Below, one piece after another: positions 16,624 to 56,071 of a stretch of DNA of 64,000 nt (position 1 is its first letter; each line of letters starts with the position of its first letter). This DNA is from Patescibacteria group bacterium. GTDB taxonomy: Bacteria; Patescibacteriota; Patescibacteriia; 2-12-FULL-60-25. Both the position numbers and the translations under genes were made by a program. The notes beneath the pieces were generated by a model. The model saw only the letters and a program-made list of their open reading frames with translations, was not told the DNA's origin and ran no database searches. The stretch covers positions 299,865-363,864 of the forward strand of contig JBAZVB010000002.1 in assembly GCA_041661105.1 (NCBI GenBank), written 5' to 3'.

Positions 16624-16654
16624 GTCATCCTGAACTTGTTTCAGGATCTCGATA
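16624..16654. repeat. Half copy of the gtcatcctgaac element
   Basis: gtcatcctgaacttgtttcaggatctcgata, identical to the copy downstream of pheS. Confidence 0.85.
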
Positions 16655-16659
16655 TCAAT

Positions 16660-17172
16660 ATGCCTAAAACAGTTTCCTTTACACTAATGATTGTTGGTTT
16701 TTTGATTTCCTCCACTCTTTGGGCTTGGATTGCTTACCCGCAACAATGGTATCCAGGGTTGTATGTCGTTGGTTTCTATGGAGTCATTTTGATGTTTATT
16801 GGAGGGATAGGAGCCCTCAAAGAAAAAATTCGTAATTTAAACATGACCGCAATCGATCCTTTTGAGCCGTATTTAGAGCCTTTATACTTACTTGTACCCG
16901 GCCCTATTGGCATCATTTTTTCTATTTTTGTTTGGGAGAATGGATTGGCTATTATGTTTTTTTACTACACGATGATGACAATTAGTGGCCTAGTTGTAAT
17001 ATATTTGGGACTTCTTATTCTCAGAATACTACCAGCCAAAGCATTGGTTAAAGAGATTGGACCAATTTATTCAAGAATAAGGTGGGTTTTGGCAACAGCA
17101 GGCGTAGCTGGATTATTTTTTACTTTTTTATGTGTCGTAGCGGCCGTTTTCAGAATAAATCTCAGTTCATAA
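16660..17172 (+). CDS. Multi-pass membrane protein (170 aa), unknown function
   Basis: Start taken at MPKTVSF. The ORF-track start at 16603 would translate the pheT remnant and the repeat (VILNLFQDL). The C-terminal half is paralogous to 15988..16350. Confidence 0.55.
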   Translation: MPKTVSFTLMIVGFLISSTLWAWIAYPQQWYPGLYVVGFYGVILMFIGGIGALKEKIRNLNMTAIDPFEPYLEPLYLLVPGPIGIIFSIFVWENGLAIMFFYYTMMTISGLVVIYLGLLILRILPAKALVKEIGPIYSRIRWVLATAGVAGLFFTFLCVVAAVFRINLSS

Positions 17173-27536: not shown

Positions 27537-27597
27537 TGAGGAGTACTGATTGGTTTGATGTTTGTTTCTTGGTTTTTGTGTTATAATTTCCCCCAGT

Positions 27598-28785
27598 ATG
27601 GGCATTAAAATCTCGCGCAGCCCGGCGGCTCATTTCCCACAGCCTCCGACCCCTAAGCTTTTCCGCAATATCGCCGTAACCTTTGTTTTGGTGACGGTGG
27701 CGGTCATTGGCGTGGCTCTTTGGACCTCCTCGGTTAAGGCCAAAGTCATCGTCAAGGTCAAGCATGAGCCGGTTAACGTGGATACGGTCTTGGATGTCTC
27801 AGGCACGCCGTCCTCCGGTCAAATCAAGGGCAGGGTGGTCACGGGAACCTTTACTGAAGCCAAGGAGTTCGTGGTTACGGCTGTCAGCACAACGGTGATT
27901 GCCGCCGCCATACCCACCAAGGCTACGGGCAAGGTCAAAATTATCAATCAATACTCGAAGGATCAGCCCTTGGTCGTTAAAACTCGTCTTCTGGCATCAG
28001 ACGGGCGTTTATACAGGATCACCAAGACGATTGACGTCCCAGCTGGAGGTTCAGTTGAGGTCGAAGCCACCTCGGACGAGGTTGGTAGCCAATATAATCT
28101 CCCAATTGGAACTAAACTAACCATCCCAGGCCTGTGGAAAGATATCCAATCCATGATTTACGCCGAAACGATTACGGCTTTTGGCGGAGTTGGTGCGAGC
28201 CATCCGGGAGGGACGGCCAAAATCTTGACGGCGGACGCTTTGGATAAGGGGCAGGAAGAACTTTATGCGGCGGCTTTGGATAAGGCTAAGCAGACCTTAA
28301 GCGTGGAAGCCGGAGCAGACCAGAATTGGGAGTCCATTTATTTGGTTGGCAGTTCACAGAAACAAAGCAACGCTGCTGTTGGCCAAGAGGCGGATAGCTT
28401 TCTGGCCCAGGTCAAAGTCACGGTCACAGCCGTCTTTTTCCCCAAAGAAGACGTGATTGCTTTTATCCGGTCGCGGCTCAATGACAAGATCCCTGAAGGG
28501 CAGAGTCTGGGTGATTTTGATTTGAGCAAAGCTTCTTTCAAACTCGAAAGCACTGATCCTGGCAAAGGTACAGCCCGTCTGGCAGTCTCGGCCGAAGGGG
28601 AAAGCCGCCTCACGGTCGACAGTCCATCCCTGCGCAAAGATTTGATTGTGGGTTTGCCTTCCGATGAAGTCATCCGCAAATGGTCAGCTTTGGACGGCGT
28701 CGAGCAGGTGGATGTGGAACTCCAACCCAGTTGGGTGCACCGGTTGCCGAGCATGAAAGATAAAATTACGGTTGTGATTAATTAG
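27598..28785 (+). CDS. Membrane-anchored hypothetical protein
   Basis: Start at MGIKISR, directly after the extended -10 tgtgttataat. One TM segment, then a beta-rich extracytoplasmic region. Confidence 0.5.
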   Translation: MGIKISRSPAAHFPQPPTPKLFRNIAVTFVLVTVAVIGVALWTSSVKAKVIVKVKHEPVNVDTVLDVSGTPSSGQIKGRVVTGTFTEAKEFVVTAVSTTVIAAAIPTKATGKVKIINQYSKDQPLVVKTRLLASDGRLYRITKTIDVPAGGSVEVEATSDEVGSQYNLPIGTKLTIPGLWKDIQSMIYAETITAFGGVGASHPGGTAKILTADALDKGQEELYAAALDKAKQTLSVEAGADQNWESIYLVGSSQKQSNAAVGQEADSFLAQVKVTVTAVFFPKEDVIAFIRSRLNDKIPEGQSLGDFDLSKASFKLESTDPGKGTARLAVSAEGESRLTVDSPSLRKDLIVGLPSDEVIRKWSALDGVEQVDVELQPSWVHRLPSMKDKITVVIN

Positions 28786-32398: not shown

Positions 32399-35299
32399 TT
32401 AAGCCGCCTTGTTTTTTCCTTGAGCCCGAATCGTTCGGGCTTTCTTGGCTTTTGGTGCTTCTGATTTAACGGTTGAAGCTTTCGTCTCACCGAATTTTGG
32501 TTTGGCGCGCATCATGCTAAAATCCTGACCCTCCTGCTCCTTTTGGCGGGCTATTTCTTTTTCAGCTTTAGCTATCTCAGTATCCAGCTTGCTTAAAGTT
32601 GATTCGACAATGTCTTGGGCAAAATCATCAGCGAAATCAGCGGGGCTCAACGCTCTTAGGAAGATGTAAGCGGCCGTTTCAGGAGATTGGTTGAACCTCT
32701 CGGTATGGCGGACAATGTCCATCATCTGGGGCAAATCACGATATTCGTCTGAGAAGCGATCTTTTTTGAAGTTAGGTAAATTCTCAATCTTCTTAAGCAT
32801 GTCGCTGACTTCTCGCTCTATGGTCGCGCCTAATTTAGCTTCCATGATGATCGGTGCCACTAGATCCCATCGCTTAGCCGCGCCAGCGCCCAGCTTTTCG
32901 ATGGCCCAGGCGGTGTTAAAAGGTTGGAGCTCTTTAGTTTCGAGCCTAGCCGTCTTTTCAAGCTTGGAGCGGGTCTTCTCGCGTGCGCCTGAGTGTACGT
33001 CGCCTTCATATTTTCCTCTTTGTACGCGTTTTGAGGCCAGGTCGCTGCCGATCACACCCATACGGCCAATGCCTGACTTGCCAGTCGTTGCCACAGATGG
33101 ATCCTCGTTGTCCCCGAGTATTCCTTGGTCACGCCAGGTAGCGTTGATTAAGTTAATCCTTTTTTGTAAGGCGGCTGCTGCCTGCTCGTCATTTTCCTTG
33201 TAAGCTTTGTCGCGTTTACTCGCCAAGCCGATGTAATCTTCTATCTGTTCTTCATCTTTGACTCTTTCCGTCAACTCTTGCCTTAAATTGTGATAGGGAT
33301 CAGCTTTCTCTTTGGTGCGTAGAGATAGAGCCTTCTCTTTTTTAGGAGCGGACGGTTTTTCCAAACGGTTAGCCACGGCTTCCAGTTCGTCAGTTGCGTG
33401 ATTGACCATCTCTGACCTTTCAACGGACAAGTCGCGCAATTCCTGGATGATTTTTTTGCTGAATTTGCCTTTAGCTCTTTCGATGATGCCGTCTCGGCGC
33501 GCGTCAAAAACGCTTATATCGTTTTGCAAATTTTTCAAAATCGGAACCATAGCTGCATTATCGGCATGTTTCGCGATCAGAGGATGGTCACGGACTACGC
33601 CTTTAAACCAGCCGGCTCTTTCTATTTCCTCCTCCTTAGTTCTATGTTCAATAAAGGCGGTCAGTATTTTTTTTCCTTGGGGAGACAGAGTGTCCTCAAA
33701 TTTAACATCTTCCTCTCCGTAAGCCGCTTTCATCTCCTCGGGAGTCAATTCGCCCTCGCCAACTTCTATGGCCGGCGTTTCCGCTCTCTTGCGTTTTTCA
33801 GCCGAAGGCGGGGGAGGGGCTTTCTTTGAAACGCTTTCTTCGACCGGCTCAAGCCTTTCCAAACTGGATTCTTCTAATTTTTCGGCTATGGCTCGGGCTT
33901 CTGCCAGCAAAGAGTCATGCTGAGATAAAAAAACTCCATTATTTTCAAGTTCTTCTTGCTTGGCTTGGATTTGCTTTCTGATTTCTTCTGCCTTTTCCTG
34001 CGCAGTCTGTCTTATTTTTTTAGTAGTTTTTTTTCTTAACTGATCAGATAATGTCTCCAACTCTTTATCTAAAGCGTCTATTTCTGTTTGAAGATGGTTA
34101 ACCCTTTCATCCTCACCCTTGATCAGCTCGCCCAATTCCGTCAGCTTTTCGTAAACTTTACCTTGGCCGCGGAATTCATAAAGCGGCGTTCCCGGCTGGA
34201 TGATGTCCGTGTTGGCCAAATCGCCGTCAATTAGCCCCTCGAAATGAGTTTTTTGCAGAAGTTCAGGTTCACTGGCCCCTTCGTTAAGCTCAGACAGGTC
34301 AACTTCCATGCTTTCTTCCTCCGGCATCCTGACGCTTTCGGCCAGGGGAGAGGTTTTAATTTCAGGGATAATGTCCTCAGCTCCTAAGGTCTTGGATTTA
34401 ACTTGAGCTCTTTCGATCCTCTCGCCGATGTTTGGTTTCTTGACGGCCGGTTTTTCTTCTACCACTTCGACGTGGATGTTCTCCAAAGCTTTGTCAGCTT
34501 CGTCCGATTGTTTAGTTTCAATCTCTTTAATTCTGGTTCTCAGAGTTCTGGGTTTTTTGGTTGTAGCCACCTGTTCAGCGATTGATCTGGCTTTAGCCGC
34601 CTCAATCCGCGCCGCCAGGCTCTCCGGAGGAGCTTCCGGTTCAACTACTTCGATATGTACTTCGTCCAGAGCCTTCTCGGCTTGGCTGGCCTGTCTTGTC
34701 TCGAGTTCCTCAATCCGGGACTTAATGCTTCTTAAGGTTCTGGGTTTTCTGGCTATAGAACCCGGCCTGACGACAGAGATGTCAGGAGTCAGTTTAACTT
34801 CCAAAGTTTTTTCAGCCAGTTTTAACTGGTCCAATAGTTCATTAAGGCTCGAGCTATCGGTTTTTTTGCCGGTGATCTTACCCAACCAGGCACCAAATCT
34901 GTCCCCTAAAGTGATGTTGGACTTTATCTCTTCAGCAGTCTTGCCAGTGACAGAATGGCCGATAATGGTCCCGACCCTTCCTCTCAGGGATTTAATTTTC
35001 GCTTGGAGCTTATCAACCTCATTCGAAGGTCTGTGCGATACCTCATTAGAGACTGACCTGCGGAGAGAAGCTACATGCTTAACTTCCTCAGTCTCGGTTT
35101 GCGTTTCCAGACGAGAGGATCGGCGCCGGGCGCTGGGCGTCTCTTGGGCCGGAGTTTCGCGGGGCCCTGCACCGTATGGTTCAGGGCGGGGAACCGGCTT
35201 CGCTTCCATCATGCTGAAAGCCTTTCTTTTAGAAGGGGTTTCAGGGGCCGGTGTGGCCTTGGGTTCTCTGTCCGTCAAAGGAATATCAAATTTTTGCAT
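32399..35299 (-). CDS. 966-aa Lys/Glu-rich coiled-coil protein, unknown function
   Basis: Long ORF. Heptad-like charged repeats, for example LQTEIDALDKELETLSDQLRKK. No TM segment or recognised domain. Confidence 0.55.
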   Translation of the reverse strand: MQKFDIPLTDREPKATPAPETPSKRKAFSMMEAKPVPRPEPYGAGPRETPAQETPSARRRSSRLETQTETEEVKHVASLRRSVSNEVSHRPSNEVDKLQAKIKSLRGRVGTIIGHSVTGKTAEEIKSNITLGDRFGAWLGKITGKKTDSSSLNELLDQLKLAEKTLEVKLTPDISVVRPGSIARKPRTLRSIKSRIEELETRQASQAEKALDEVHIEVVEPEAPPESLAARIEAAKARSIAEQVATTKKPRTLRTRIKEIETKQSDEADKALENIHVEVVEEKPAVKKPNIGERIERAQVKSKTLGAEDIIPEIKTSPLAESVRMPEEESMEVDLSELNEGASEPELLQKTHFEGLIDGDLANTDIIQPGTPLYEFRGQGKVYEKLTELGELIKGEDERVNHLQTEIDALDKELETLSDQLRKKTTKKIRQTAQEKAEEIRKQIQAKQEELENNGVFLSQHDSLLAEARAIAEKLEESSLERLEPVEESVSKKAPPPPSAEKRKRAETPAIEVGEGELTPEEMKAAYGEEDVKFEDTLSPQGKKILTAFIEHRTKEEEIERAGWFKGVVRDHPLIAKHADNAAMVPILKNLQNDISVFDARRDGIIERAKGKFSKKIIQELRDLSVERSEMVNHATDELEAVANRLEKPSAPKKEKALSLRTKEKADPYHNLRQELTERVKDEEQIEDYIGLASKRDKAYKENDEQAAAALQKRINLINATWRDQGILGDNEDPSVATTGKSGIGRMGVIGSDLASKRVQRGKYEGDVHSGAREKTRSKLEKTARLETKELQPFNTAWAIEKLGAGAAKRWDLVAPIIMEAKLGATIEREVSDMLKKIENLPNFKKDRFSDEYRDLPQMMDIVRHTERFNQSPETAAYIFLRALSPADFADDFAQDIVESTLSKLDTEIAKAEKEIARQKEQEGQDFSMMRAKPKFGETKASTVKSEAPKAKKARTIRAQGKNKAA

Positions 35300-35381: not shown

Positions 35382-35456
35382 CTAGACGATAGCTGGTAGA
35401 CAGTAGGCGGTAGCCGGATTTTTTGGAAGCTACTGTCTACCGTCTATTGTCTAAGG
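35382..35456. repeat. TAGACGATAGC-word hairpin
   Basis: ctagacgatagctggtagacagtaggcggtagcc ... gctactgtctaccgtctattgtctaagg. Confidence 0.75.
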
Positions 35457-36071: not shown

Positions 36072-36180
36072 AATAATGGTCTACGAAATTACGAATTTTT
36101 TACGAATATACGAAATTACGAATTAGGATTGTTAGGACATTCTGGCTACTGGCTATCGTCTACCAGCTACCGTCTTTTAT

Positions 36181-37229: not shown

Positions 37230-37697
37230 TCAAATGTCTTCGCCGCGCATAAACCGTTTAGTTTCGCGGTCCAGATCGCGGTCTTTGATTTTTTGGCGCT
37301 TCTCAAAGGTTTTTTTGCCTCGAGCCAGCCAAAAACCAACCTTAATCCGTTGGCCACGAGTATATAGTGATATGGGTATCAATGTCAAGCCTTTTTGCCC
37401 TAATTTACCCGTTAAATATCGTATTTCTTTAGCGCTTAAGAGCAAATCCCTGGTTCTTTCGGTGTCATGCGGGGACTGGGCAGAGGCCTTTTTATAGCGG
37501 GCAATGACCGCTCCAATCAGCCTGGGACGGCCTCCTTGCAGGATGATGTGGGCGGCGTCGATCTTGGCCCCGCCTTCGCGGGTCGATTTAACTTCCTGGC
37601 CGGTCAATGCCAAACCGCCCTCGAATTCCTCGAGCTTTTCATAGTCATAACCAGCTTTACGGTTGGTGGCCAAAGTCGGCATGGAACTATCGTACAA
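37230..37697 (-). CDS. smpB: SsrA-binding protein
   Basis: LATNRKAGYDYEKLEEFEGGLALTGQEVKS and the basic C-terminal tail. Confidence 0.95.
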   Translation of the reverse strand: MYDSSMPTLATNRKAGYDYEKLEEFEGGLALTGQEVKSTREGGAKIDAAHIILQGGRPRLIGAVIARYKKASAQSPHDTERTRDLLLSAKEIRYLTGKLGQKGLTLIPISLYTRGQRIKVGFWLARGKKTFEKRQKIKDRDLDRETKRFMRGEDI

Positions 37698-37758
37698 CTA
37701 ACAACTGACAACTAACAAGAGTAAAACTGTTAAACTCTTGTCAGTTGTTAGTTGTCAC
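37695..37758. repeat. CAACTAACA-word hairpin between divergent smpB and the permease gene
   Basis: caactaacaactgacaactaacaagagt ... actcttgtcagttgttagttgtcac. Confidence 0.75.
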
Positions 37759-37764
37759 TTTTAA

Positions 37765-38811
37765 ATGGTATCATTAGCTCATATGACCGAAAGAGTAATC
37801 CACATTTCGACAGCCACGATCTTAAAGACGATTGCCATCATTCTGGGACTGGCTCTGCTTTGGCTGGTAAAGGACATAATCATTTTACTTTTCCTTTCCC
37901 TGTTCTTAGCGGCCCTGATTCAGCCGGCGGCGGATTGGGGATCTAAATACAAGATTCCTCGAGGCCTAATGGTCGTGTTTGTTTATCTTGCCACTTTCGG
38001 GGTATTGGTTCTGGTGGTCGCGCTTATGGTTCCGACTTTGATCGAGCAGGCCGTAAGGTTGGCGACAATTTTCGGTGAGAAATGGGTTGTGATACAAGAC
38101 GTGGCCAATGCCGCGACAAAATTTGCCAACGCGCATTCTTTGAGTTCTTCGCTCAAGCCGGACATGGCTTCGATCTGGACGCAGGTTGGCAGCACCGTCA
38201 CCGGCTTATTTAACACCCTGACTGATGTGGTCGGCGGCTTGGTGGCTTTTGTGGTCGTGCTGGTCATGGCTTTTTATCTTGTCGCGCAGGAAAGGAAAGC
38301 CCTGACCATCATTCAAGATTTTGTGCCGGTTAAGCATCAGAAATTCGCGTTGGATTTGGTCGAAGCGGTTCAGTTAAAGATGGGAGCCTGGTTCCGCGGA
38401 CAGATCCTTCTCTGTTTAATCATCGGCGCGTTGTATTACATTGGTTTATTAATTATAGGCATCGACAGCCCGTTGGTTCTGGCATTATTCGGAGGGCTGA
38501 CGGAATTCATTCCTTATCTGGGCCCGATCTTGGGAGGGATTCCGATTGTTTTCGTGGCTTTCATTGCTTCGCCTTTCATGGGCCTTTTGGCTTTAATCGT
38601 GATCATCGTCATTCAACAAGCCGAAGGACATTTTATTGTGCCCAAGGTCATGCAAAAGGCGGTCGGCTTAAATCCTCTGGTCAGTATCCTTGCGTTGTTA
38701 ATAGGTGCGCAACTTTACGGCATCTTGGGAGCTTTGTTGGCTATTCCGGTGGCCACGGCCATCTCTGTTATCTATAAAGAAGCCCGCAATTATTGGTCGA
38801 CTTTGGCATAA
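37765..38811 (+). CDS. AI-2E family transporter (PerM-like permease)
   Basis: About 8 TM segments with the typical AI-2E layout and length. Confidence 0.7.
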   Translation: MVSLAHMTERVIHISTATILKTIAIILGLALLWLVKDIIILLFLSLFLAALIQPAADWGSKYKIPRGLMVVFVYLATFGVLVLVVALMVPTLIEQAVRLATIFGEKWVVIQDVANAATKFANAHSLSSSLKPDMASIWTQVGSTVTGLFNTLTDVVGGLVAFVVVLVMAFYLVAQERKALTIIQDFVPVKHQKFALDLVEAVQLKMGAWFRGQILLCLIIGALYYIGLLIIGIDSPLVLALFGGLTEFIPYLGPILGGIPIVFVAFIASPFMGLLALIVIIVIQQAEGHFIVPKVMQKAVGLNPLVSILALLIGAQLYGILGALLAIPVATAISVIYKEARNYWSTLA

Positions 38812-40249: not shown

Positions 40250-41431
40250 ATGTCAAAATTTACGCAACTCATTAAACATCCATCGGTTTGGATTACGGTC
40301 GTTATCGTTGGGACGGTTGTTTTGAGCGCCTTATCCGGCGGTTTAGCCGGCGCCTGGATGGCGGCCCGGATCGTGCCCAGCTCCAACCCTGGTAATTTTA
40401 GAGTGCTTTCAGCTACCTCGACCGCCAATGGAACTGCGACGCAGACGGCGGTCTCCAGCACATCCATCAAATTAGTCTCAGTTCAAATGCAGGATTCTTC
40501 GGAAAGAGTTGTTCCGGAACCCATCTTTAATCGCCGGAGCCCGGTTGGTTTGATCTACGCTCGCAAAAAAGCGTTTGGCGATAGTTTGTTAGTCAACCAA
40601 GATTTGCAAGGCCGCGTCGTGGCCATGACTTCTGACGGATGGTTTGTGACGCCTCCTCAGGTTATCGCAGGCTGGCGGGTGGCAGAGATGTTGGTTTGGT
40701 ATGATGGCCACGCTTACAAAATTGAAAAAGCTATTTTGGATAAATCCACTCAAGCCGTCTTTCTGAAAACATCAGCCAGAGATTTACCGGCCATTCCTTT
40801 TGCCGATCTTTGGTCAACCCGGACCGGTCTCGCGGCTTGGATTGAATCTGCGCCGAGTGAACTGGCACCGTCATCCGTCGAAGCATTGCGGGCAGTCATA
40901 GAAAACGATCCTGTCTCAAGCGATCACGCGTATCGCCGTCTGGTAGCCCAGGGCACTTTGCGCAAAGAGGAGCAAGGCTCGCCTGTCTGGGATGCCAAAG
41001 GAGCTTTAATCGGCATCGCGGAATCATCGGCCGATGGCCGGTTGTCTTTAATCCCGGGGAGCAGCCTTTCCGCTTCTTTGCAGAGTTTGGTTGGTAGCGG
41101 ACAGATCAGCCACGCCTTGTTGGGTGTGTATAGTTTAGATCGCGGATTGATTCGTCTCGCCACGACTGTAACAGATATGCCAAACCGCGGCGCTTGGATT
41201 ACGGGCCGCGCGATTCTTAAAGATAGTGTGGCCGAAAAAGCCGGTTTAAAAATCAATGATGTGATTCTTCAAGTGGATCGTGATATAATGGATGGGAGTT
41301 CTGATTTGAGTGATATAATTTTGCAATATCGTCCCGGGTCCAATGTTACTCTGCGCCTCTGGCGGGCCGGGAAAGAGATAGAGGTGTCAGTCACTCTGGG
41401 CACGCAAATCACGAGCGAAGCAATTTTGTAA
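40250..41431 (+). CDS. HtrA-like trypsin-fold plus PDZ protein, possibly non-catalytic
   Basis: YDGHAYKIEKAILDKSTQAVFLK and GSPVWDAKGALIGI align with the HtrA Asp and Ser regions. TPPQV sits where TNxHV would be. The C-terminal PDZ includes AEKAGLKINDVILQVD. Confidence 0.45.
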   Translation: MSKFTQLIKHPSVWITVVIVGTVVLSALSGGLAGAWMAARIVPSSNPGNFRVLSATSTANGTATQTAVSSTSIKLVSVQMQDSSERVVPEPIFNRRSPVGLIYARKKAFGDSLLVNQDLQGRVVAMTSDGWFVTPPQVIAGWRVAEMLVWYDGHAYKIEKAILDKSTQAVFLKTSARDLPAIPFADLWSTRTGLAAWIESAPSELAPSSVEALRAVIENDPVSSDHAYRRLVAQGTLRKEEQGSPVWDAKGALIGIAESSADGRLSLIPGSSLSASLQSLVGSGQISHALLGVYSLDRGLIRLATTVTDMPNRGAWITGRAILKDSVAEKAGLKINDVILQVDRDIMDGSSDLSDIILQYRPGSNVTLRLWRAGKEIEVSVTLGTQITSEAIL

Positions 41432-41436
41432 ACACA

Positions 41437-42045
41437 ATGCCATCCGTCAATATCCTGCACCTTTACGTTCGAGCTTGGAAGCCGCTTGTTTTGATTACTC
41501 TGGCCGGTTTGGTTTTGGCTTTATTGGGTTCGGCTTTGATGCCTCTCAAATTTTCTTCCACCGTGCGTTTGTTAATCACGCAGACCAATGCCACGGGAGT
41601 CGACCCTTACACGGCCATCAAATCTACCGAAAGGATTGGACAGAATTTGGCTGAGATTGTTTATACGAGCAGTTTTTTTAACGCGGTGACTCAGCAACAG
41701 GGCGTTGACCTTACGTATTTTTCAACTGACGAAATAGACAAACGCCAGGAATGGAAGAACACCATGTCCATCAACGTGGTCGCCGGCACGGGGATTATGG
41801 AAGTCACGGCCTACCATAAGGATCGCAATCAGGCCACGATTTTGGCGGTTGATGTGGCCAAGGAGCTAGCGCAACAAGCTCCCAACTATTTTGGATATTC
41901 CGTTCGTTTGCAGATTATTGATGATCCGTTGCCGTCTCGTTTTTTTGCCAAACCTGACTTTGTTCAAAACGGCGGTCTGGGAGCCTTATTCGGATTTTTG
42001 GTCGGTTCGCTTTGGGTTTTAGCCAGAATGAAGGAGATAAGATAA
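41437..42045 (+). CDS. Wzz/polysaccharide co-polymerase-like protein (N- and C-terminal TM segments)
   Basis: TM - periplasmic helical domain - TM topology. LVLITLAGLVLALLGSAL ... GALFGFLVGSLWVLA. Confidence 0.4.
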   Translation: MPSVNILHLYVRAWKPLVLITLAGLVLALLGSALMPLKFSSTVRLLITQTNATGVDPYTAIKSTERIGQNLAEIVYTSSFFNAVTQQQGVDLTYFSTDEIDKRQEWKNTMSINVVAGTGIMEVTAYHKDRNQATILAVDVAKELAQQAPNYFGYSVRLQIIDDPLPSRFFAKPDFVQNGGLGALFGFLVGSLWVLARMKEIR

Positions 42046-42186
42046 CCCCCTCATCCCAACCCTTCCCACCGAACTCGGGGGAAGGGCTTTATGGCTCAAC
42101 AGAGCCTCTTTTTGTTTATATCAGGCAAACAGGGTTTACGTCATCCGAATATCGATAGTAAGGTTAGCCGCAGATGCCCGATACCC

Positions 42187-42245
42187 TTGACAAATATGCT
42201 GATTTGTGCTATATTATCGTATTCTTTAAACACCAAAGTTGTGTG
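42187..42245 (+). promoter_or_regulatory. Promoter plus conserved 5' leader module, copy A
   Basis: TTGACA (42187-92), 17 nt, extended -10 TGc TATATT (42210-15), then ttctttaaacaccaaagttgtg. About 75 % identical by hand alignment to 63174..63232, with the same spacing. Confidence 0.65.
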
Positions 42246-42484
42246 ACCCTGAAGCCGTTTTGTGCCAATTGGGAAGTCTTCCTCCTCTTCTCAGGAGGCA
42301 CAGGACGGCTCTAGGGTCTCACCAACGCAGCTCACCCCAGGTTTACTTCATTGTGACTTGGGTTGCTGGGCCGCGTGGTGTGTGCCCAGTACTTTGACTT
42401 TTACGAGGGAACTAACCTGACCCGCAGACAGCGGGCAGAACATTGGATTCTGCCCCACGAACGGGCAGGAAGGAGCTCGAGAAG

Positions 42485-43828
42485 ATGAACTGGATGAAGA
42501 GTGCATTCTGGGCGGTGGCGATTTTCGTCGTCACCATGGTCTTCAACCTCAACCCGGCTCACGCCGATGGGTGGGCCCGCAAGTCGCTCGGCGACAAATC
42601 GTCCGTGATCCCGCCGACTGAGTGTCCCAATGTGAAGCTTCCTGACATGGCTCGCGACTTGTGCAAGGACGCGGCTACCAAGGCTGCTTGCCCTACCGAG
42701 TGCGCACAAGTCGCTTGCATCCAGAACTGTCTGCAGCCTCCTGCGACGCCTGCGGCCACTCCGACCCCGCCTCCCGTCAAGAAGCCGTTGACCACTCTGC
42801 CTTCTCAGCTCATCTGCGAAGGCGGAACGCAGATCACCGACGCCAAGGGAATGCCCGACTGCGGATGTTCCCCGGATAAGGTGAATCTGGAGAACGGCAC
42901 GCCCAAGGAACAGCCGAGGGTCTCCGTTCTGAAGGCCACCCGGTACGTGACCACGGCCACCACGATTCAGTTCATTCGCCACATGGTGTGCGCGAGCGAT
43001 GGCGAGGTCACCAAGATCCTCAACGACAGGTTGAACCTCCACACCAAGAAGATCGATGCTCTCGAGAAGTTCGCTCGGGAGCAGAACATCTTCGACCAGG
43101 CGGTGCTGGACCAGTTCGAAGCACTGCGGAGGCATGCCGAACAGACTCGCAGTCTCCTCCTTGTCATGGCCAAGACGGTCGAAGAACTCAACAAGAAGAT
43201 CAGCGAGTTCGACGGTGCCCTGGAGACCATGAACGCGACGTACAAGAAGTTGCGTTCTGACGTCGAGAACATCAAGAGGTTCGTGCCCCGCTTTGACCTG
43301 GCGTACTCGATCGGAGTCATGTTCCGCGGATCGGACGCCGGCGCCGGTATGACGCACCACCTGGTGGTCGGATACACTCAGACGTTCGACAATTCGCCGA
43401 TCAATGTCTGGGCTCAGGCCCGCGCCGGTTACCTGACCTGCAACGGTTGCGACCCGCGGACGGCTGGCAGTACTACGATGTACACGGGCGGCGGAGCTGC
43501 TGGCCTTGGCATCGGCCTCGGTGACAACCGAGCTTTCAGCATTCGCGCCGGCTTGTTCGCACAGCTCGTCGCCGCGCCGGATTCTCTCAAGGAGAACGGC
43601 ATGGGTCGCCAGATCGGTGGGGAACTCCAGGTTCGCTACGACATCCCCAACTTTCCGGTCTTCATCGCAGGCGTCGGAGATTTGGCCTTGTACAACAAGT
43701 CCAACTACTTCGGCAAAGCCGGCGAGCCTCCGAACAACATCCACGCGGGGGCTGATCGAAGCATGGGCGGGGCGCTCATGTTCATGATTGGCCTTTCCCC
43801 GGAGCTCCCGTTCATCGGAAGCTTCTAA
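42485..43828 (+). CDS. GC-rich secreted protein A: signal peptide, Cys-rich region, Pro-rich linker, coiled coil, Gly/aromatic beta-rich C-terminal domain ending ..FIGSF
   Basis: AAGGAG RBS 8 nt before the ATG. MNWMKSAFWAVAIFVVTMVFNLNPAHA signal. CPTECAQVACIQNC. PPATPAATPTPPPVKKP. Heptad region LNDRLNLHTKKIDALEKF... Alternating-hydrophobic strands in the last ~170 aa. Confidence 0.65.
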   Translation: MNWMKSAFWAVAIFVVTMVFNLNPAHADGWARKSLGDKSSVIPPTECPNVKLPDMARDLCKDAATKAACPTECAQVACIQNCLQPPATPAATPTPPPVKKPLTTLPSQLICEGGTQITDAKGMPDCGCSPDKVNLENGTPKEQPRVSVLKATRYVTTATTIQFIRHMVCASDGEVTKILNDRLNLHTKKIDALEKFAREQNIFDQAVLDQFEALRRHAEQTRSLLLVMAKTVEELNKKISEFDGALETMNATYKKLRSDVENIKRFVPRFDLAYSIGVMFRGSDAGAGMTHHLVVGYTQTFDNSPINVWAQARAGYLTCNGCDPRTAGSTTMYTGGGAAGLGIGLGDNRAFSIRAGLFAQLVAAPDSLKENGMGRQIGGELQVRYDIPNFPVFIAGVGDLALYNKSNYFGKAGEPPNNIHAGADRSMGGALMFMIGLSPELPFIGSF

Positions 43829-43954
43829 TCCCTCGGCTTGAGGCGGTATGAGTACTCTCATATCGCCTCCCCGACACGAGTTACCAACTGTCAGTTGATA
43901 CCTCATGTCGCTGCACGATTCATTCGCGCAGATGCTCTAAGACAACTAAAAATT

Positions 43955-44061
43955 TCCCCTCCTAATTTTAGGATGTTGTGACGGATAAAAAGGATTCAGC
44001 TACTATCGATTGTTTAAGATCCAATGTTTTAATTTTCACGGCGCCTAAAATTAGGAGGGGA
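43955..44061. repeat. 18-bp perfect inverted repeat around a 71-nt AT-rich spacer
   Basis: tcccctcctaattttagg (43955-72) and cctaaaattaggagggga (44044-61). The right arm contains AGGAGG. Confidence 0.8.
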
Positions 44062-44156
44062 GTAAATCTGTTGGCAATTTGGCCGGCAGATCAAGTGTGT
44101 CATGTTCGCGGTTGTGCTTTTGCGCACCGCGCGAGACTACGTCAAGGAGAAGGACC

Positions 44157-45503
44157 ATGAAGACGACGTTTTGGATGACTCTTGTTCTCGTGAGTGCGCT
44201 CGTCGGCTGTGCATTCGACCCCCAGCCCGAAAACGCTGGTGGTTCATCTGGCACAGCTGGAACGGCTGGCGTTGGCGGCGCGGGCGGAACCGGCGGCAAC
44301 AGCTGCGTCCCCAACTGCGGCGGCAACAGCGGCGCGGGCGGTTCGACGAAGGTCTGCAACGCGGGCAGCTTGGCTGCTTGCGAGTGCACGCCCGGCGTGT
44401 GGGGTCAGAAGACCTGCAACGCCGACGAAAAGGGCTACGGAGCCTGCTCGTGCGTTCAGCCCGGCGTGTTCTGCCGCGATGCGGACGGCGACAGCTTCGG
44501 TGATCCGAAGCAGTGCGCGCAGTACCAGAACCAGCCGAACGGCTATGTCGCGAACAGCGGCGACTGCGACGACAGCAACGCTGATGTCAAACCGAGTGCA
44601 AACGAGATCTGCGGCAACAAAATCGACGACAACTGCAACGGGCAGATCGACGAGAATTGTGCGCAGAACTACACCTTCTTCCCTGACAACGACCATGACG
44701 GTCATGGTGCGCAGGGAAGCCAGGGTGTCCAGTTCACGACGCTCACCCCGCCGTACGGCTACGCCGTGACTGCGGACGACTGCGACGACAACAACGCGGC
44801 CGTGTACAACACGTGCGGCCAGGTCTGCGTCCCCGGAGCTTCCGTCACCTGCAGTTGCGGCGCCGGATCCTACGGGAACCAGATCTGCAACTCGGCTGGC
44901 ACGGGCTTCGGCACTTGCCAGAACTGCAGCGGCGGAACTGGTGGCAGCGGCGGAACCGGCGGATCGGGACCTCACCCCACGGACTGCTCGGATCTCTCGG
45001 GCCAGAAGACGCTTCACCTCGTCGTCAATGCTCGAGCTGGGGTCACCATCCAGGTGCGCGGTGCGGCAACGTTCTGGGGCAACTACAACCAGGACGACAG
45101 CCCGGCCATGGCCTGGTGCGGACACTGGCAAGTTCCGGGGTACTACAACGACACCCCGGTTCTGAGCGCGGTGCAGCATCTCGAGGCTGACATTCCTGTT
45201 GCCATCGAGAGCAACGGCAAGGACATCCTGATCGCCGGCATCCCGCAGTGGATGGCATGGCGCGGTCAGGTATACCTCCTCGATCCCGGCAACACGGACA
45301 TCTGGCACGCCCGCTACGCATTCACCGTCAATCCGGTGGGTGCCAAAGCCGCACTTCAGGGCGATGAGTCCTGCACGCTGTACTTCGACGGCAAGGCGAT
45401 CACGGACAACTACTGCCGCGCGCTTCCGGGTGTGGGTTTCCACCAGGCCCCGAATCTGACCACTGGTCAGAACGGAGTCGTGGACAACCCGCTGAACCCG
45501 TAA
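44157..45503 (+). CDS. GC-rich lipoprotein B with MopE-type Cys/Asp 'putative metal-binding' motifs
   Basis: AAGGAGAAGG RBS. MKTTFWMTLVLVSALVGC lipobox. DADGDSFGD...DCDDSNADVKPSANEICGNKIDDNCNGQIDE and DNDHDGHG...DCDDNNAAVYN. Gly-rich linkers. Confidence 0.65.
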   Translation: MKTTFWMTLVLVSALVGCAFDPQPENAGGSSGTAGTAGVGGAGGTGGNSCVPNCGGNSGAGGSTKVCNAGSLAACECTPGVWGQKTCNADEKGYGACSCVQPGVFCRDADGDSFGDPKQCAQYQNQPNGYVANSGDCDDSNADVKPSANEICGNKIDDNCNGQIDENCAQNYTFFPDNDHDGHGAQGSQGVQFTTLTPPYGYAVTADDCDDNNAAVYNTCGQVCVPGASVTCSCGAGSYGNQICNSAGTGFGTCQNCSGGTGGSGGTGGSGPHPTDCSDLSGQKTLHLVVNARAGVTIQVRGAATFWGNYNQDDSPAMAWCGHWQVPGYYNDTPVLSAVQHLEADIPVAIESNGKDILIAGIPQWMAWRGQVYLLDPGNTDIWHARYAFTVNPVGAKAALQGDESCTLYFDGKAITDNYCRALPGVGFHQAPNLTTGQNGVVDNPLNP

Positions 45504-45571
45504 CAGCGGCAATCGCGATCGTAGCCCCCATAACTGAGCTCAGGGGCTGACGGTCAAACAACTTCAACTGG

Positions 45572-45610
45572 GGCGCTGGTCAGGATTGCTCATCCTGGAC
45601 CAGCGCCTTT
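45572..45610 (+). terminator. Intrinsic terminator after gene B
   Basis: ggcgctggtcagga-ttgctca-tcctggaccagcgcc followed by tttt. Confidence 0.65.
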
Positions 45611-45618
45611 TACGTTTC

Positions 45619-45795
45619 TAGTTAGACGATAGCTGGTAGACGATAGCTAGTAGCAAGAATTTGGCTACTGTCTAATAGCTACCGGCTATCGTCTAGTTAT
45701 AATTGGCTAACTTTACATTAAAAATAGCTACTAGCTGGTAGACGATAGCTAGTAGCTAGGGTTTGGCTACCGTCTACCAGCTACCGTCTACCAGC
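45619..45795. repeat. Two tandem TAGACGATAGC-word hairpins (backbone-type repeat) inside the GC-rich cassette
   Basis: Hairpin a at 45619-45696 and hairpin b at 45725-45795. Same word family as 32311, 35382, 36141 and 6923. Confidence 0.8.
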
Positions 45796-45811
45796 TTTAA
45801 GGTTGGGGAGC

Positions 45812-45840
45812 TTGACAAATTCACTTTTTTTTGCCTAAAT
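45812..45840 (+). promoter_or_regulatory. Promoter of gene C
   Basis: TTGACA (45812-17), 17 nt, CTAAAT (45835-40). Confidence 0.45.
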
Positions 45841-45901
45841 GCAAGCACAACCCATAGGTCAGGTCGGGCTCCCAGAGCCCAATTTCGAGGAGGATATGGT
45901 C

Positions 45902-47197
45902 ATGAACAAGGTTCTTTGGACATTCATCATCGGTTTGTTCAGCCTCGTGCTGAGCAGCCAAGCCTGGGCTGATCCCACGGCCATCGAGAAGTGCGCGGAC
46001 GCCTGCGCTCGAACCGTCAACGTCTGTCTGAACGTCAGCACGGTCGATCCACCGGTTCTGCCGGATATGGCGGTGGCCTGCAAGGACATCACCGAGTGTA
46101 AGGGCGTGGACGCCACGTTGTTCGCCACGTACTCGAAGTGGTTTGCGGAATGCGTCAAGAATCCCGGCTCCTGTCATCAAGCTTGCATCGCGCCCAAGGT
46201 CACTCCTGCGCCGACCGGCGGTACCGGGCAAACGCCTCCACCGCCCCCGCCCAAGTCGCAGCCTGCCCCCATGTCCGAAAAGGACAAGTGCGTCAAGATC
46301 CATCACGGTTACTACACCGGGATCAAGACGGAGGACGGCAAGTTCATTGAACGGTGCTACAAGATCTCGAACGCCGAGCACGATGTCGAGGCACTCAAGG
46401 CCGAGGTGGCTGCGATCAAGGCAAGGCTCGACAACGGTCAGCCCGCGGGTATCTCTCCCATGGTCATGTACCTCTACTGGCAGGTCTACCAGTTGAGCCT
46501 GGCTTCCAACGGCCACACCGAAGTCCTGAACGAGGCACGTCGCATCGTCACAGAGTTCGACGGACTCAAGAAGCGTGTCGAGGGTCTCGAGAAGCGCATG
46601 GGCGATGCTGAGCACAACATCAGTGTTGTGACTGGCAAGGTCGCTACCTTGGAAGGTCGGCCAGGATCGTCTCCGGGTCAACCGGGCGGTACGAAGCTTG
46701 TCATCAACAGGGCAGGATTGCCTTGCTGGCTCGGCGGCTACGGGTCGGTCAACACCCACAAGGTGTACGATCATCTCATCGGCTCCATCGGTGGGGAACT
46801 CGGTTGCTCGCTCTTCGGCTCCAACGACGGCGCGCACAGTTTCGTCCTGGGCGGCGGCGGCGGGTTCGTACCGAGCGAGTACTTCGCTCACAAGCTCGTC
46901 GAGCTCCATGCTCTAGCAGGGTACAAGTATCGTGGTGCAGACTACGAGCTCCTGATGACCGGTTCCGGCAAGTGGTTCAACACAACCACCTTCGAGACCG
47001 GGACCATGAGCTGGTACGGCGTCCTGCCCGAGGCCCGCTATCTCTTCGGCTCTGACAAGAACTGGTTCGTGGGCGGTCGGCTTGGTCTAGGCGTGATGAA
47101 TGTTGCGCCTCCTTTCCCGCCTGATGTGATGGCGAATGGAAGGCAGACGTCCTTCAGCGCCAACCTGTCAGGCTTGCTCGGCGCTTCGTTCCGATGA
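45902..47197 (+). CDS. GC-rich secreted protein C, distant paralogue of protein A
   Basis: GAGGAGG RBS 8 nt upstream. MNKVLWTFIIGLFSLVLSSQAWA signal. Same order of Cys-rich, Pro-rich (PPPPPPKSQP), coiled-coil and beta-rich parts. Shared LPDMA..CKD and EFDG motifs with A. Confidence 0.65.
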   Translation: MNKVLWTFIIGLFSLVLSSQAWADPTAIEKCADACARTVNVCLNVSTVDPPVLPDMAVACKDITECKGVDATLFATYSKWFAECVKNPGSCHQACIAPKVTPAPTGGTGQTPPPPPPKSQPAPMSEKDKCVKIHHGYYTGIKTEDGKFIERCYKISNAEHDVEALKAEVAAIKARLDNGQPAGISPMVMYLYWQVYQLSLASNGHTEVLNEARRIVTEFDGLKKRVEGLEKRMGDAEHNISVVTGKVATLEGRPGSSPGQPGGTKLVINRAGLPCWLGGYGSVNTHKVYDHLIGSIGGELGCSLFGSNDGAHSFVLGGGGGFVPSEYFAHKLVELHALAGYKYRGADYELLMTGSGKWFNTTTFETGTMSWYGVLPEARYLFGSDKNWFVGGRLGLGVMNVAPPFPPDVMANGRQTSFSANLSGLLGASFR

Positions 47198-47230
47198 CAC
47201 GACCCTGACCAGGTCCTCCTCCTCGCTACC

Positions 47231-47267
47231 GCGGTCTTGCTAATCACAGCAAGACCGCTCTTTTTTT
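47231..47267 (+). terminator. Intrinsic terminator ending the GC-rich cassette
   Basis: gcggtcttgct-aatcac-agcaagaccgc followed by tcttttttt. Confidence 0.8.
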
Positions 47268-47294
47268 ATCATGCACTTCACGTCCTCCCAGTCT

Positions 47295-47366
47295 GTCATC
47301 CTGAACTTGTTTCAGGATCCCAGCACCAATTGCTACGTGAGATGCCGAAACAAGTTCGGCATGACG
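47295..47366. repeat. Full gtcatcctgaac... two-hairpin element upstream of holB
   Basis: gtcatcctgaacttgtttcaggatc-ccagcaccaattgctacgt-gagatgccgaaacaagttcggcatgac. Confidence 0.85.
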
Positions 47367-47405
47367 AAAAGAATGACAGATTGTTTCTTATGCTATAATG
47401 GTTTT

Positions 47406-48338
47406 ATGCCCGGATATTGGGATGAAATCATCGGCCACAAGCCAGTGGTCAAGCTTTTGGACTTATGGGTTGAACACCCGGCTTTTTCATATCTCTTTTA
47501 CGGACCGGCCCATTTGGGCAAATCGGCCGTGGCTGAAAAGTTCGTCAGAGCCTTGGTGGGCGAGACTGATCTCAAAGATTTAAATTTGCATCCAGACATC
47601 GTCATGTTCTTGCCAGAAGAGGGGAAGAAAGATATTTCCGTCGAACAAGTCAGAAAGAATCGTCTCCGCTTGTATGAACGCCCGCAGATTGCCCAAAGAG
47701 TCGTAGCTTTTTTACCCAAGCTTGATCGTCTGAACGAAACGGGTTTCAACGCCTTGCTCAAGGTCATGGAAGAACCACCGGCTGACGCGGTTTTTATTTC
47801 AGTCGCGGAAAATCTGGCGCGCCTTCCTTCAACCATTGTCAGTCGAACGGTTTGCGTGCCTTTTGGTTTAGTTTCACAAAAAGAAATTCAAGCCGGATTG
47901 GAATTAAAAGGCATGGAACCGGAAGAAGCTAAAAGACGCGCCGGCGAAAGTCGCGGGCGTCCCGGATTGGCCATAGAGGAAGATCAAAGCAAGGAAGCGT
48001 TTATGGAAGCGGCTAATCAGTACGCGCTTGGCCCCACGGTCGGCCATCGCTTGGCCGCCTCTGAGAAGTTGCGACAAGCTTGTGAGTCCAGCGAAGACAC
48101 ATCTTCGGCTTGGACTTCTGCTTTGGAAGCTTGTATGTTGGCTCTGCGCCAGGATTTCTTAAAACGGACGCGTGAGACTCTAATTTTGGGGCAGGGCATC
48201 GCCGACGCCATGGCCAGCATCAACGGCCCGGTCCAACCGCGTTTTTTGCTGGATGCCGCCGCCCTTCAGGTCTCCCGTAATTTTTTACTCATGCCAAATC
48301 TTTATCCAAGATATTTTCCTCTAAGTTTAACTGTTTAA
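47406..48338 (+). CDS. holB: DNA polymerase III delta-prime subunit
   Basis: IIGHKPVVKLL...LFYGPAHLGKSAVAEKF (Walker-A-like) and LLKVMEEPP. Start chosen downstream of the repeat. Confidence 0.8.
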   Translation: MPGYWDEIIGHKPVVKLLDLWVEHPAFSYLFYGPAHLGKSAVAEKFVRALVGETDLKDLNLHPDIVMFLPEEGKKDISVEQVRKNRLRLYERPQIAQRVVAFLPKLDRLNETGFNALLKVMEEPPADAVFISVAENLARLPSTIVSRTVCVPFGLVSQKEIQAGLELKGMEPEEAKRRAGESRGRPGLAIEEDQSKEAFMEAANQYALGPTVGHRLAASEKLRQACESSEDTSSAWTSALEACMLALRQDFLKRTRETLILGQGIADAMASINGPVQPRFLLDAAALQVSRNFLLMPNLYPRYFPLSLTV

Positions 48339-55045: not shown

Positions 55046-56071
55046 ATGAACCACGAAAAAATAGTTCCACATTACAGCGAGAATAGAGCTGAAGATATTG
55101 GCGCGCAAAATCAGCAAATTATCCAAAAAAAGGAAGGGAAGTTACAATTCACCTCTGCTTATGTAGATTTAAATGGTGGATGCAATTTTAAATGCGAGGG
55201 ATGCTTTAAGCACATGAATATGGAGCAATCCAGTGAAAGATTGCAATTAGAACAGATCAAAGAGATTGTTAATTTTGTGAAAGAACGAGGCGGCGAATCT
55301 ATTGCGTTTGCAGGCCAAGGAGAGCCATTGATGGACAGGGATTTTTGGGAAGTTACTGAATACATAAAAGAACGAGGGCTAGAGAGCATTGTCTTTACCA
55401 ACGGCACATTAATAAGAGATAATAACGATGCTGAAAAATTACTCCAATCTGGCTCCGTCATTATCAAAAGGAATACACTTAATGATGCTTTACAGGATAA
55501 ACTAGTTGGTGTGGAAGGGGCGAGTAAAATGATACAGCATGGGCTTGATGCTTTGTTTGAAGCTCGCGAAAAACTTGATCAGAATAACGAAAAACACGGC
55601 GTCCTTGGGATTGATACCTACGTCATCAAAGATAATTTAGACGATCTTCCTGATTTGTTAAGGTATTGCAGAAGGAATGGTGTCATTCCTTACTTTGAAG
55701 CTTTTATAGAGCTTGGTCAGACTAAAGATACAGTTGAAAAGTTGGGACTTACAGCAGAAGAGTTGACTAAAGCGTTCTTGGTGTTGCAAAGAATAGATAA
55801 AGAAGAATTTAATATGGAAATCCCAGTTGTTCCCGGCATGCGTACGTATGGCCAACCAGTATGTAGTAGGGGGACACACATGTTTTCTGTACGTGTGAAT
55901 GGAGAGATTTACCCTTGCATATCTGCTGTAAATAATCCTTTGGGTACCATATACGACGATGATGGAGCAAAGAGAAGTTTAGAAAAAGTATTTGCCCCAG
56001 GAAACGAAAAGTTAAAGAGAATGTTTTGTGCGGTGTGTTCAAAAAGAGTACAAAAGAAATATTGCCAGTAA
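55046..56071 (+). CDS. Radical SAM enzyme with a SPASM/twitch-like C-terminal Cys cluster
   Basis: CNFKCEGC (CX3CX2C) and GQGEPL. C-terminal C-x12-G-x4-C (CSRGTHMFSVRVNGEIYPC), then CAVCSKRVQKKYC. Confidence 0.75.
   Translation: MNHEKIVPHYSENRAEDIGAQNQQIIQKKEGKLQFTSAYVDLNGGCNFKCEGCFKHMNMEQSSERLQLEQIKEIVNFVKERGGESIAFAGQGEPLMDRDFWEVTEYIKERGLESIVFTNGTLIRDNNDAEKLLQSGSVIIKRNTLNDALQDKLVGVEGASKMIQHGLDALFEAREKLDQNNEKHGVLGIDTYVIKDNLDDLPDLLRYCRRNGVIPYFEAFIELGQTKDTVEKLGLTAEELTKAFLVLQRIDKEEFNMEIPVVPGMRTYGQPVCSRGTHMFSVRVNGEIYPCISAVNNPLGTIYDDDGAKRSLEKVFAPGNEKLKRMFCAVCSKRVQKKYCQ

Follow-up and report, generated by a model that had tools for sequence, protein, structure and literature searches.

The three genes A, B and C that lie between the gene of a 202-amino-acid (aa) membrane protein and holB in a Patescibacteria group bacterium (assembly GCA_041661105.1, contig JBAZVB010000002.1) form, with a probability of about 60%, a native, vertically conserved locus of a Parcubacteria-type Patescibacteria clade, and at much the same level we read this cassette as a locus of abundant, hypervariable cell-envelope or surface-layer (S-layer) proteins. 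The whole stretch that was analyzed, i.e., the 64,000 nucleotides (nt) from position 299,865 to position 363,864 of the contig, is referred to as the window, and all positions are given in its own numbering. The Candidate Phyla Radiation (CPR, or Patescibacteria) makes up a large share of bacterial diversity and, to our knowledge, hardly anything is known of the proteins that form its periodic surface layer and bring about host attachment. The locus offers concrete candidates for them in the form of a strongly promoted, codon-optimized and hypervariable three-gene set that can be tracked across the clade, and an exact 23-nt tag from the leader of A finds it in any metagenome.

Conserved position and composition of the cassette

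The cassette is located between the 202-aa membrane-protein gene and holB in at least nine species-level Patescibacteria genomes and about 10 metagenome contigs. The loci of the relatives were located by a scan with an exact 23–24-nt motif from the A leader, which matched 9 species-representative genomes and 10 metagenome contigs, and at each match the 202-aa gene was found on one side and an A-like gene rich in GC at third codon positions (GC3) on the other. Every related locus long enough to show it has the cassette at this same site, and the homologues of A and C, which number 12 A-type and 5 C-type proteins, all occupy one and the same gene neighbourhood, where SmpB (minus strand) and the AI-2E transporter are followed by two membrane proteins, the PDZ protein, the 202-aa protein and the cassette. 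For instance, the gene order in GCA_028715505.1 is that of the window both on the left side (SmpB on the minus strand, AI-2E transporter, 253-aa transmembrane protein, PDZ protein, 202-aa protein) and on the right side (A, B, C, holB, BNR lipoprotein, RRF, GlyRS). The membrane-anchored PDZ protein (393 aa) and the 202-aa membrane protein always lie directly upstream of the cassette (40250–42045 in the window), the latter being very conserved, with 82–96% identity among most relatives and 76% to the most distant one. The neighbours in the window are typical CPR housekeeping genes (PheRS, ThrRS, GlyRS, DnaE, holB, RRF, SmpB and tmRNA). At least 15 independent contigs contain the left junction of the cassette. 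The sequence of protein A equals that of NCBI MFA6100037.1 (WC750_04130), and the organism has been assembled twice with identical cassette proteins (contigs of 381,851 and 82,861 bp). Two loci with the CPR-type synteny of 253-aa protein, PDZ protein, 202-aa protein, leader and A-like gene (L013, CAZRYH010000020.1, and L017, CAZPAP010000027.1) come from metagenome-assembled genomes labelled 'uncultured Gammaproteobacteria', and these labels are probably wrong.

As the initial annotation had described, open reading frames (ORFs), strong ribosome-binding sites (RBSs) and export signals are visible in the sequence for all three genes: the RBSs read GGAAGGAG (A), AAGGAGAAGG (B) and GAGGAGG (C), while the signal peptides of A and C end in ..NLNPAHA/DG and ..SQAWA/DP, respectively. 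The most likely start of B is 44157 and that of C is 45902, 8 nt past its RBS, with 45896 as the alternative. The GC-rich block that had been pointed out is equally clear, as GC is 0.60–0.64 and GC3 0.76–0.79 in A, B and C compared to 0.49 and 0.54 in the backbone. Along the sequence, 1-kb windows across 42001–47000 have a GC of 0.56–0.615 and the surroundings of about 0.47–0.52, and relative to 40 backbone genes (mean GC 0.487, standard deviation 0.048; mean GC3 0.541, standard deviation 0.081, maximum 0.71) the cassette genes stand at z = 2.7–3.0.

The source of this excess was examined by recomputing the expected GC of each gene from its amino acids with backbone codon frequencies. Synonymous choice accounts for 0.08–0.09 of the excess and amino-acid composition for 0.02–0.06, the cassette proteins being enriched in Gly, Cys, Pro, Asn and Thr. 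The synonymous shift falls mainly on two-fold codons, and the fractions in cassette vs. backbone are 0.92 vs. 0.39 for TTC, 0.92 vs. 0.44 for TAC, 0.92 vs. 0.41 for AAG, 0.88 vs. 0.49 for CAG, 0.86 vs. 0.49 for ATC and 0.85 vs. 0.49 for AAC. The T-ending four-fold codons are unshifted (cassette/backbone: GCT 0.27/0.27, GGT 0.24/0.24, CCT 0.22/0.23), and the spacers within the cassette have a GC of 0.47–0.48, which is the backbone level. This codon pattern fits codon selection and not a GC-rich donor, as a gene from a donor of 60–65% GC would have GC-rich four-fold sites and spacers too. The C-ending bias is moreover common to the L20, L35, IF3 and RRF genes (0.75–0.82, vs. 0.35–0.6 elsewhere), as translational selection predicts. 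The high GC would reflect codon selection in very highly expressed genes together with a composition rich in Gly, Ala, Pro and Cys, and a second reason for the composition being so constant would be a clade-wide allele pool that is decoupled from the GC of each backbone. As the sole cause, GC-biased gene conversion or regional mutation bias was considered and is unlikely, given spacers and four-fold sites near backbone values; either may have made some contribution.

An acquisition from elsewhere followed by domestication had been proposed for the cassette on account of its composition. This proposal was not borne out by the relatives, in which the homologues are similarly GC-rich genes at the same locus, with a GC3 of 0.73–0.84 in every orthologous cassette and of 0.42–0.70 in the flanking genes. 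We do not consider the cassette foreign, because its orthologues at the same site are GC3-rich in all relatives, whatever the GC of the backbone. Its presence is not patchy, its spacers and four-fold sites are backbone-like, and no mobility genes were found nearby, in line with the earlier statement that neither integrase nor transposase is present near the cassette. The case also carries a caution, namely that codon selection together with recombination inside a clade can produce a sharp GC island, with no foreign origin involved.

Mosaic alleles and regulatory elements

Protein A is a mosaic of reassorting modules whose alleles are swapped whole between near-identical strains. Between the window and the related locus L009, the flanking proteins are 63–93% identical, compared to 36% for A, 61% for B and 38% for C. 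The head, middle and coil of A in the window group with P0002, P0004 and P0006 (53–75%), while its barrel groups with P0003, P0005 and P0007 (60–68% vs. 26–30%), and P0016 combines a head that is about 90% identical to that of P0005 with a barrel that is only 29% identical. For the loci L001 and L002, the synonymous divergence (dS) of the flank is 0.02, 0.11 and 0.19, and that of A is 1.59 at 50.6% amino-acid identity; the low values in the flank together with the high value in A imply allele replacement by recombination and not divergence in place. In the same pair, dS climbs in the order given through the upstream genes towards A, a rise that resembles the border of a recombination tract. 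O-antigen, flagellin, pilin and S-layer loci show the same pattern, in which deep allele classes and reassorting modules are combined with conserved flanks. In the mechanism that we propose, the exposed proteins would be kept diverse in the population, with ectodomain and barrel modules reassorting, and whole alleles would be replaced via homologous recombination anchored in the conserved flanks and the leader.

The regulatory elements (promoters, leader and terminators; Table 1) are better conserved than the proteins of the cassette. Promoters of the TTGACA type had been claimed and two were found, the one of A with both the -35 and the -10 box kept in 7 of 7 aligned relatives, and the one of C with a block (CTTGACAAAT..TTTTTGCCTAAATGCAAGC) that is nearly invariant in 4 loci. 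The leader RNA of A is a new, undescribed conserved structured element, and a search of Rfam with the leader and the spacers gave no match. Its main hairpin (42241–42322, within the first 100 nt of the leader) has 31 pairs; in the alignment, 95.4% of the cells are paired vs. 45–50% in slid controls, compensatory changes occur at 10 pairs, and none of 500 shuffles equalled the observed covariation score. The apical loop UCUUCCUCCU (42277–42286, 10 nt) varies only at its first two positions among 21 sequences, resembles an anti-Shine-Dalgarno sequence and is complementary to the RBS of C (GAGGAGG). The first nucleotides of the leader at its 5' end (UUCUUU) are predicted to pair with the Shine-Dalgarno sequence of A, both sides being invariant, and the leader block GGGAAGnnTTCCTCCTCTTCTCA is present exactly in the 9 genomes and 10 metagenome contigs. 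A pyrimidine signal extending over the whole cassette was also considered and dropped, as CCTCCTC is not enriched window-wide (11 matches vs. 6.7 expected).

According to the initial annotation each gene has its own terminator. A stable hairpin does follow each of them (z from -5.7 to -6.6), but a U-tract is present after B and C only and is lacking after A, where the stem is nevertheless maintained by compensatory changes in the relatives. The hairpin of the A–B spacer contains an 18-nt perfect inverted repeat with arms that carry CCCCUCCU and AGGAGGGG, is kept in 5 relatives, and may serve B as an element of processing, stability or translation. The word hairpins of the B–C spacer, which had been taken as a sign of domestication, are real and share their words with backbone spacers of this genome (35383–35453 and 36145), but they are absent from relatives (at this position in L008, L009 and L014). 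They are a genome-specific local repeat insertion and, being a repeat of this genome, argue against a chimera and are silent on domestication. Intergenic word hairpins (GTAGACGATAGCT.. and ACAACTAACAACTGACAA..) were observed at 35383–35453, 36145–36164 and 37693–37770 as well, a behaviour like that of repetitive extragenic palindromes or miniature inverted-repeat transposable elements. A, B and C are apparently separate transcription units, with promoters identified for A and C only, and the leader and the 3' hairpins would probably stabilize or regulate the mRNAs.

Table 1. Genes and regulatory elements of the cassette, in window coordinates
Feature	Position	Strand	Length	Details
Promoter of A	42187..42215	+		TTGACA, 17 nt, TG-n-TATATT; 11/12 matches in consensus scan, extended TG
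Structured 5' leader of A	42222..42484	+	~263 nt	conservation above that of coding sequence
Gene A	42485..43828	+	447 aa	GC 0.60, GC3 0.78
3' hairpin after A	43833..43874	+		-27.5 kcal/mol, z = -5.65; without U-tract
Long hairpin of A–B spacer	43954..44062	+	109 nt	arms TCCCCTCCTAATTTTAGG / CCTAAAATTAGGAGGGGA; -46.3 kcal/mol, z = -7.6
Gene B	44157..45503	+	448 aa	GC 0.64, GC3 0.79
Intrinsic terminator after B	45570..45619	+		-28.8 kcal/mol, z = -6.4, then UUUUACGUUU; kept in 4 loci
Word hairpins (two) of B–C spacer	45616..45796	.		GTAGACGATAGCT-type words; inverted repeats I1–I5
Promoter of C	45812..45841	+		TTGACA, 17 nt, CTAAAT; below threshold of consensus scan
Gene C	45902..47197	+	431 aa (433 if start is 45896)	GC 0.60, GC3 0.76
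Intrinsic terminator after C	47231..47268	+		found by terminator scan; -20.6 kcal/mol, z = -6.6; U-tract

Proteins of the cassette and their likeness to known systems

In the AlphaFold2 model of A, the signal peptide is followed by a Cys-rich helical head, a Pro/Thr linker modelled as disordered, a small beta unit, helices at residues 175–261 that include a coiled coil of about 85 residues, and strands at residues 266–437. The C-terminal domain consists of eight long amphipathic strands, ends in Phe and is predicted, with moderate confidence, to be an eight-stranded OmpX/OmpA-like barrel. The eight strands were modelled with a predicted local distance difference test score (pLDDT) of 70–83 and a length of 11–18 residues, and in a Foldseek search against PDB the top 10 matches were all eight-stranded outer-membrane proteins (OMPs; Ail, OmpA, OmpX, OmpW and NspA), with E-values from 2e-4, a probability of 1.00 and target-normalized TM-scores (a measure of fold similarity) of 0.29–0.62, reaching 0.66 at rank 21. 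The two faces of the strands alternate, one being hydrophobic or aromatic and the other containing 28% Gly and hardly any Lys or Glu; the invariant Gly residues of the family are on the latter face, whose composition is more in keeping with the packed interior of a barrel than with a surface exposed to solvent. In the model, turns of 4–5 residues are found on the side of the termini and loops of 5–17 residues on the opposite side. The aromatic residue that had been noted at the C-terminus of A is indeed Phe, and Phe or Tyr ends the protein in 8 of the 12 family members (Leu or Lys in the rest). These 12 are all the members found among 1.84 billion representatives, where the barrel profile matched 8 proteins, all of the same architecture.

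Protein C follows the domain order of A, with helices at residues 157–252 and strands at 279–430, at low confidence (AlphaFold2, pLDDT 45, and below 50 in the eight strands). No significant fold matches were obtained with Foldseek for this model, and the non-significant ones mix soluble barrels (YceI, HtaA) with OMPs. The amphipathicity of its strands is weaker than in A, and the C-terminal residues are irregular in its family, which counts 4 homologues of C. Searches of Pfam, NCBIfam and PDB by sequence and profile returned nothing but coiled-coil noise for A and C, tblastn of both against 50,697 phage records found nothing, and the sole trace in the OMP searches was DUF3575 (E = 0.045) in 2 C-type members. 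The OMP-like barrels that had been suggested for both proteins, a fold unexpected in a CPR bacterium, were partly supported by structure prediction, for A at moderate confidence and not for C, and no OMP family profile was matched by either.

The architecture that A and C had been said to share is supported. In both, the signal peptide and a Cys-rich helical module are followed by a Pro linker and a small beta unit, and then by long helices and an eight-strand C-terminal domain. The motifs cited as a further likeness (LPDMA..CKD and EFDG) are present but weak, as the two proteins are matched by BLASTP with E = 0.001 and at the N-terminus only. When full-length alignments were compared with hhalign, the coiled coil was matched and nothing else; no relation was indicated between the barrel domains (probability 0.3%) or the N-terminal domains (probability 0.9–5%). 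The view of A and C as demonstrated paralogues was rejected, paralogy being not demonstrable by sequence.

Protein B is a lipoprotein with a lipobox (LVG/C; MKTTFWMTLVLVSALVG/C) whose Cys is invariant in 8 orthologues, and it is composed of linkers rich in Gly, modules rich in Cys, two MopE/DxDxDG repeats and a well conserved C-terminal domain of about 165 aa. Both the lipobox and the MopE motif had been recognized beforehand, and the latter was corroborated by a match to PF11617 (Cu-binding_MopE; E = 4.8e-10, 39.9 bits at a cut-off of 27) and by a match of the orthologue profile to MopE (PDB 2vov; E = 2.1e-5, repeat only). With orthologues that are 54–76% identical, B is the best conserved of the three proteins. 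B shares its DxDxDG...CDDxN...C repeat, in two copies, with MopE/PF11617 proteins such as MopE of Methylococcus and the MYXO-CTERM proteins of Myxococcota. However, only this repeat of about 35 residues is common to them, and no other part of B has relatives outside the clade; the lipobox, the Cys-rich modules and the C-terminal domain are clade-specific.

The predicted barrel of A resembles the eight-stranded OMPs of clan MBB (OmpX/Ail, the N-domain of OmpA, OmpW and NspA) in its eight long antiparallel amphipathic strands, its short turns on the side of the termini with longer loops opposite, its Gly-rich interior face and its frequent C-terminal aromatic residue, with target-normalized TM-scores of 0.5–0.66 in Foldseek. 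It differs from them in lying outside their sequence families and in being C-terminal, after a coiled coil, and the phylum of its host is thought to have neither an outer membrane nor the machinery for beta-barrel assembly. The CPR is placed within or next to the Terrabacteria. In diderm Terrabacteria, the SlpA/OmpM tethers are built from a wall-binding SLH domain, a coiled coil that bridges the periplasmic space and, at the C-terminus, a barrel (PMC10160955). The same succession of coiled coil and C-terminal barrel is predicted for A (and for C at low confidence), and the termini and coiled coil of A are likewise predicted on the short-turn side of the barrel. In contrast to these tethers, A and C have a Cys-rich module in place of the SLH domain (no match at E <= 1 in any member), and the barrel of A has eight strands and is not a large porin, OmpM1 (8bys) being a poor fold match (probability 0.06).

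In trimeric autotransporter adhesins (type Vc, YadA-like), too, a signal peptide precedes a variable head, a stalk formed by a coiled coil and a beta anchor at the C-terminus, and the heads are hypervariable and modular, as in A. However, the YadA anchor contributes 4 strands per chain and its passenger exits via the pore, whereas 8 strands per chain are predicted for A and the asymmetry of its loops and turns puts the stalk on the cis side; the anchor, head and neck motifs and Pfam families of YadA were not found in A or C. With S-layer genes (slpA of Lactobacillus, PS2 of Corynebacterium) the cassette has in common a very strong promoter, a long structured 5' untranslated region and strong terminators, and both show an extreme bias in codon use, fast modular evolution and replacement of alleles. 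PS2 is an S-layer protein that forms a coiled-coil umbrella anchored in the mycomembrane (PMC12337289), and the modularity of S-layer proteins has been described (10.1101/2025.04.02.646754). The cassette differs in having no known domain for S-layer anchoring or lattice formation and in encoding three different proteins and not one dominant subunit.

Competing explanations and other observations in the window

Groundwater CPR cells have been described with a periodic S-layer and no outer membrane, attached to Gram-negative hosts, and their S-layer proteins have not been identified (10.1101/2020.05.14.094862). A, B and C are candidates for the periodic S-layer and the host-contact structures that cryo-TEM has revealed on such cells. 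As we picture it, A and C would be stalk proteins in which a disulfide-rich head is joined by a Pro linker to a coiled coil, with a Gly/aromatic beta domain at the C-terminus, and B would be a membrane-anchored lipoprotein that binds Ca or another metal through its MopE (DxDxDG) repeats. Several results weigh against this reading of the locus. G-ending codons are preferred for Lys, Gln and Glu (AAG, CAG and GAG, at 0.82–0.86, or 0.75–0.93 over the cassette genes and their orthologues in L009); this preference is confined to the cassette and those orthologues and is not seen in the ribosomal-protein, IF3 and RRF genes (0.27–0.56), so ordinary translational selection does not cover the whole bias; the high expression of A, B and C is deduced from codon bias and promoter strength; and the dN/dS ratio (nonsynonymous to synonymous divergence) of 0.14 within one allele class leaves positive selection unsupported, so that only deep allele classes and recombination remain. 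An ancient acquisition at the base of the clade is also conceivable. The model of A was built from 7 sequences and has a mean pLDDT of 59, that of C has a pLDDT of 45, the alignments are shallow (5–7 sequences), and no OMP family, SLH or CWB2 domain was found in the 12 A-type and 5 C-type proteins with the hidden Markov models of Pfam and NCBIfam at E <= 1.

The barrel of A may be lipid-embedded, buried in a protein lattice or mis-modelled. A serious though clearly weaker contender than the reading preferred here holds that the C-terminal domains are soluble or lattice-forming beta domains of the S-layer type with hydrophobic faces buried in protein contacts, the OMP resemblance being due to convergence or to a bias of AlphaFold towards closed barrels for sequences with alternating Gly and aromatic residues. 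The shallow alignments and the missing OMP families would agree with it, as would the mixture of YceI and HtaA with OMPs among the weak matches of C, the beta-barrel S-layer domains known elsewhere (10.1101/2025.04.02.646754), and the imaged CPR cells with a periodic S-layer and without an outer membrane (10.1101/2020.05.14.094862; 10.64898/2026.03.03.709456). However, the significant fold matches of A (probability 1.00) are exclusively membrane barrels, its strands reach 11–18 residues with a polar face that is rich in Gly, has few Lys and Glu residues and differs in this from a surface exposed to solvent, its short turns on the termini side and longer loops opposite are OMP-like, and a terminal aromatic residue is common in its family. 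That A, and possibly C, is a truly lipid-embedded beta-barrel in a phylum held to be monoderm, acting as an OmpM-like tether or as a host attachment device, seems unlikely to us. Imaged CPR cells are reported to lack an outer membrane (10.1101/2020.05.14.094862; PMC10160955), and no Omp85 was seen among the protein families of the 64-kb window. As a tether, the Cys-rich head may sit at the wall or on B, with the coil crossing a gap like a periplasm and the barrel lying in an outer layer of this clade that is toga-like or cryptic; as an attachment device, a self-inserting eight-stranded barrel may be lodged in the Gram-negative host's outer membrane, and the barrel and head modules, hypervariable and reassorting as they are, would then follow the diversity of hosts or phages. 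The key claim here comes from structure prediction of moderate confidence. A truly embedded barrel would bear directly on the loss or partial retention of the outer membrane in Terrabacteria/CPR and on the docking of episymbionts onto diderm hosts.

With regard to origin, it is quite improbable that the ancestor of the clade took the cassette from a GC-rich donor (e.g., Myxococcota-like and rich in MopE repeats) and that donor composition has been kept since. In favour of such a transfer are the GC excess of 0.10–0.15 over the backbone and the G-ending preference for Lys, Gln and Glu, which is unlike that of the translation genes of the host, and MopE repeats are most common in proteins of Myxococcota, Desulfobacterota and Bacteroidota. 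However, A and C have no homologues outside the clade (in 5.8 billion clusters and 1.84 billion representatives), outsiders share only the short repeat of B, the four-fold sites and internal spacers are not donor-like, and the promoters and the leader are clade-specific and strongly conserved. The GC3 has, in addition, stayed at 0.73–0.84 despite backbone values of 0.42–0.70 and proteins diverged to 25–45% identity, which indicates active maintenance, since a composition that is simply inherited would ameliorate. An assembly or binning chimera, to which the abrupt change of composition at 42.2 kb and 47.2 kb might point, can, in agreement with the initial annotation, be set aside almost entirely: both junctions recur in assemblies made independently from different samples and in the second assembly of the same organism, and a backbone-specific repeat lies inside the block. 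A native locus of abundant, variable envelope proteins is accordingly the explanation that we prefer.

Some further features of the window were recorded. Low-GC genes (0.31–0.40, vs. 0.49 for the backbone) were found at 14911–17172, 23043–23714 and 55046–56071, comprising two small ORFs without an assigned family, an NYN-domain protein and a radical-SAM protein, and recent acquisition is more plausible for these than for the GC-rich cassette. Between dnaE and a deoxyhypusine-synthase-like gene, 27562–28785 encodes a 407-aa protein that carries a Baseplate_J-like domain (E = 8e-7) and has no other phage genes near it. The holB ORF (47271–48338) is listed with 355 aa, compared to 310–311 aa in orthologues, and its listed start abuts the terminator of C and an inverted repeat at 47295–47365; the true start is probably about 45 codons downstream. 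Three large ORFs on the minus strand have no Pfam family (4503–6905, 800 aa; 32399–35299, 966 aa; 882–2522, 546 aa) and may encode further lineage-specific envelope proteins.

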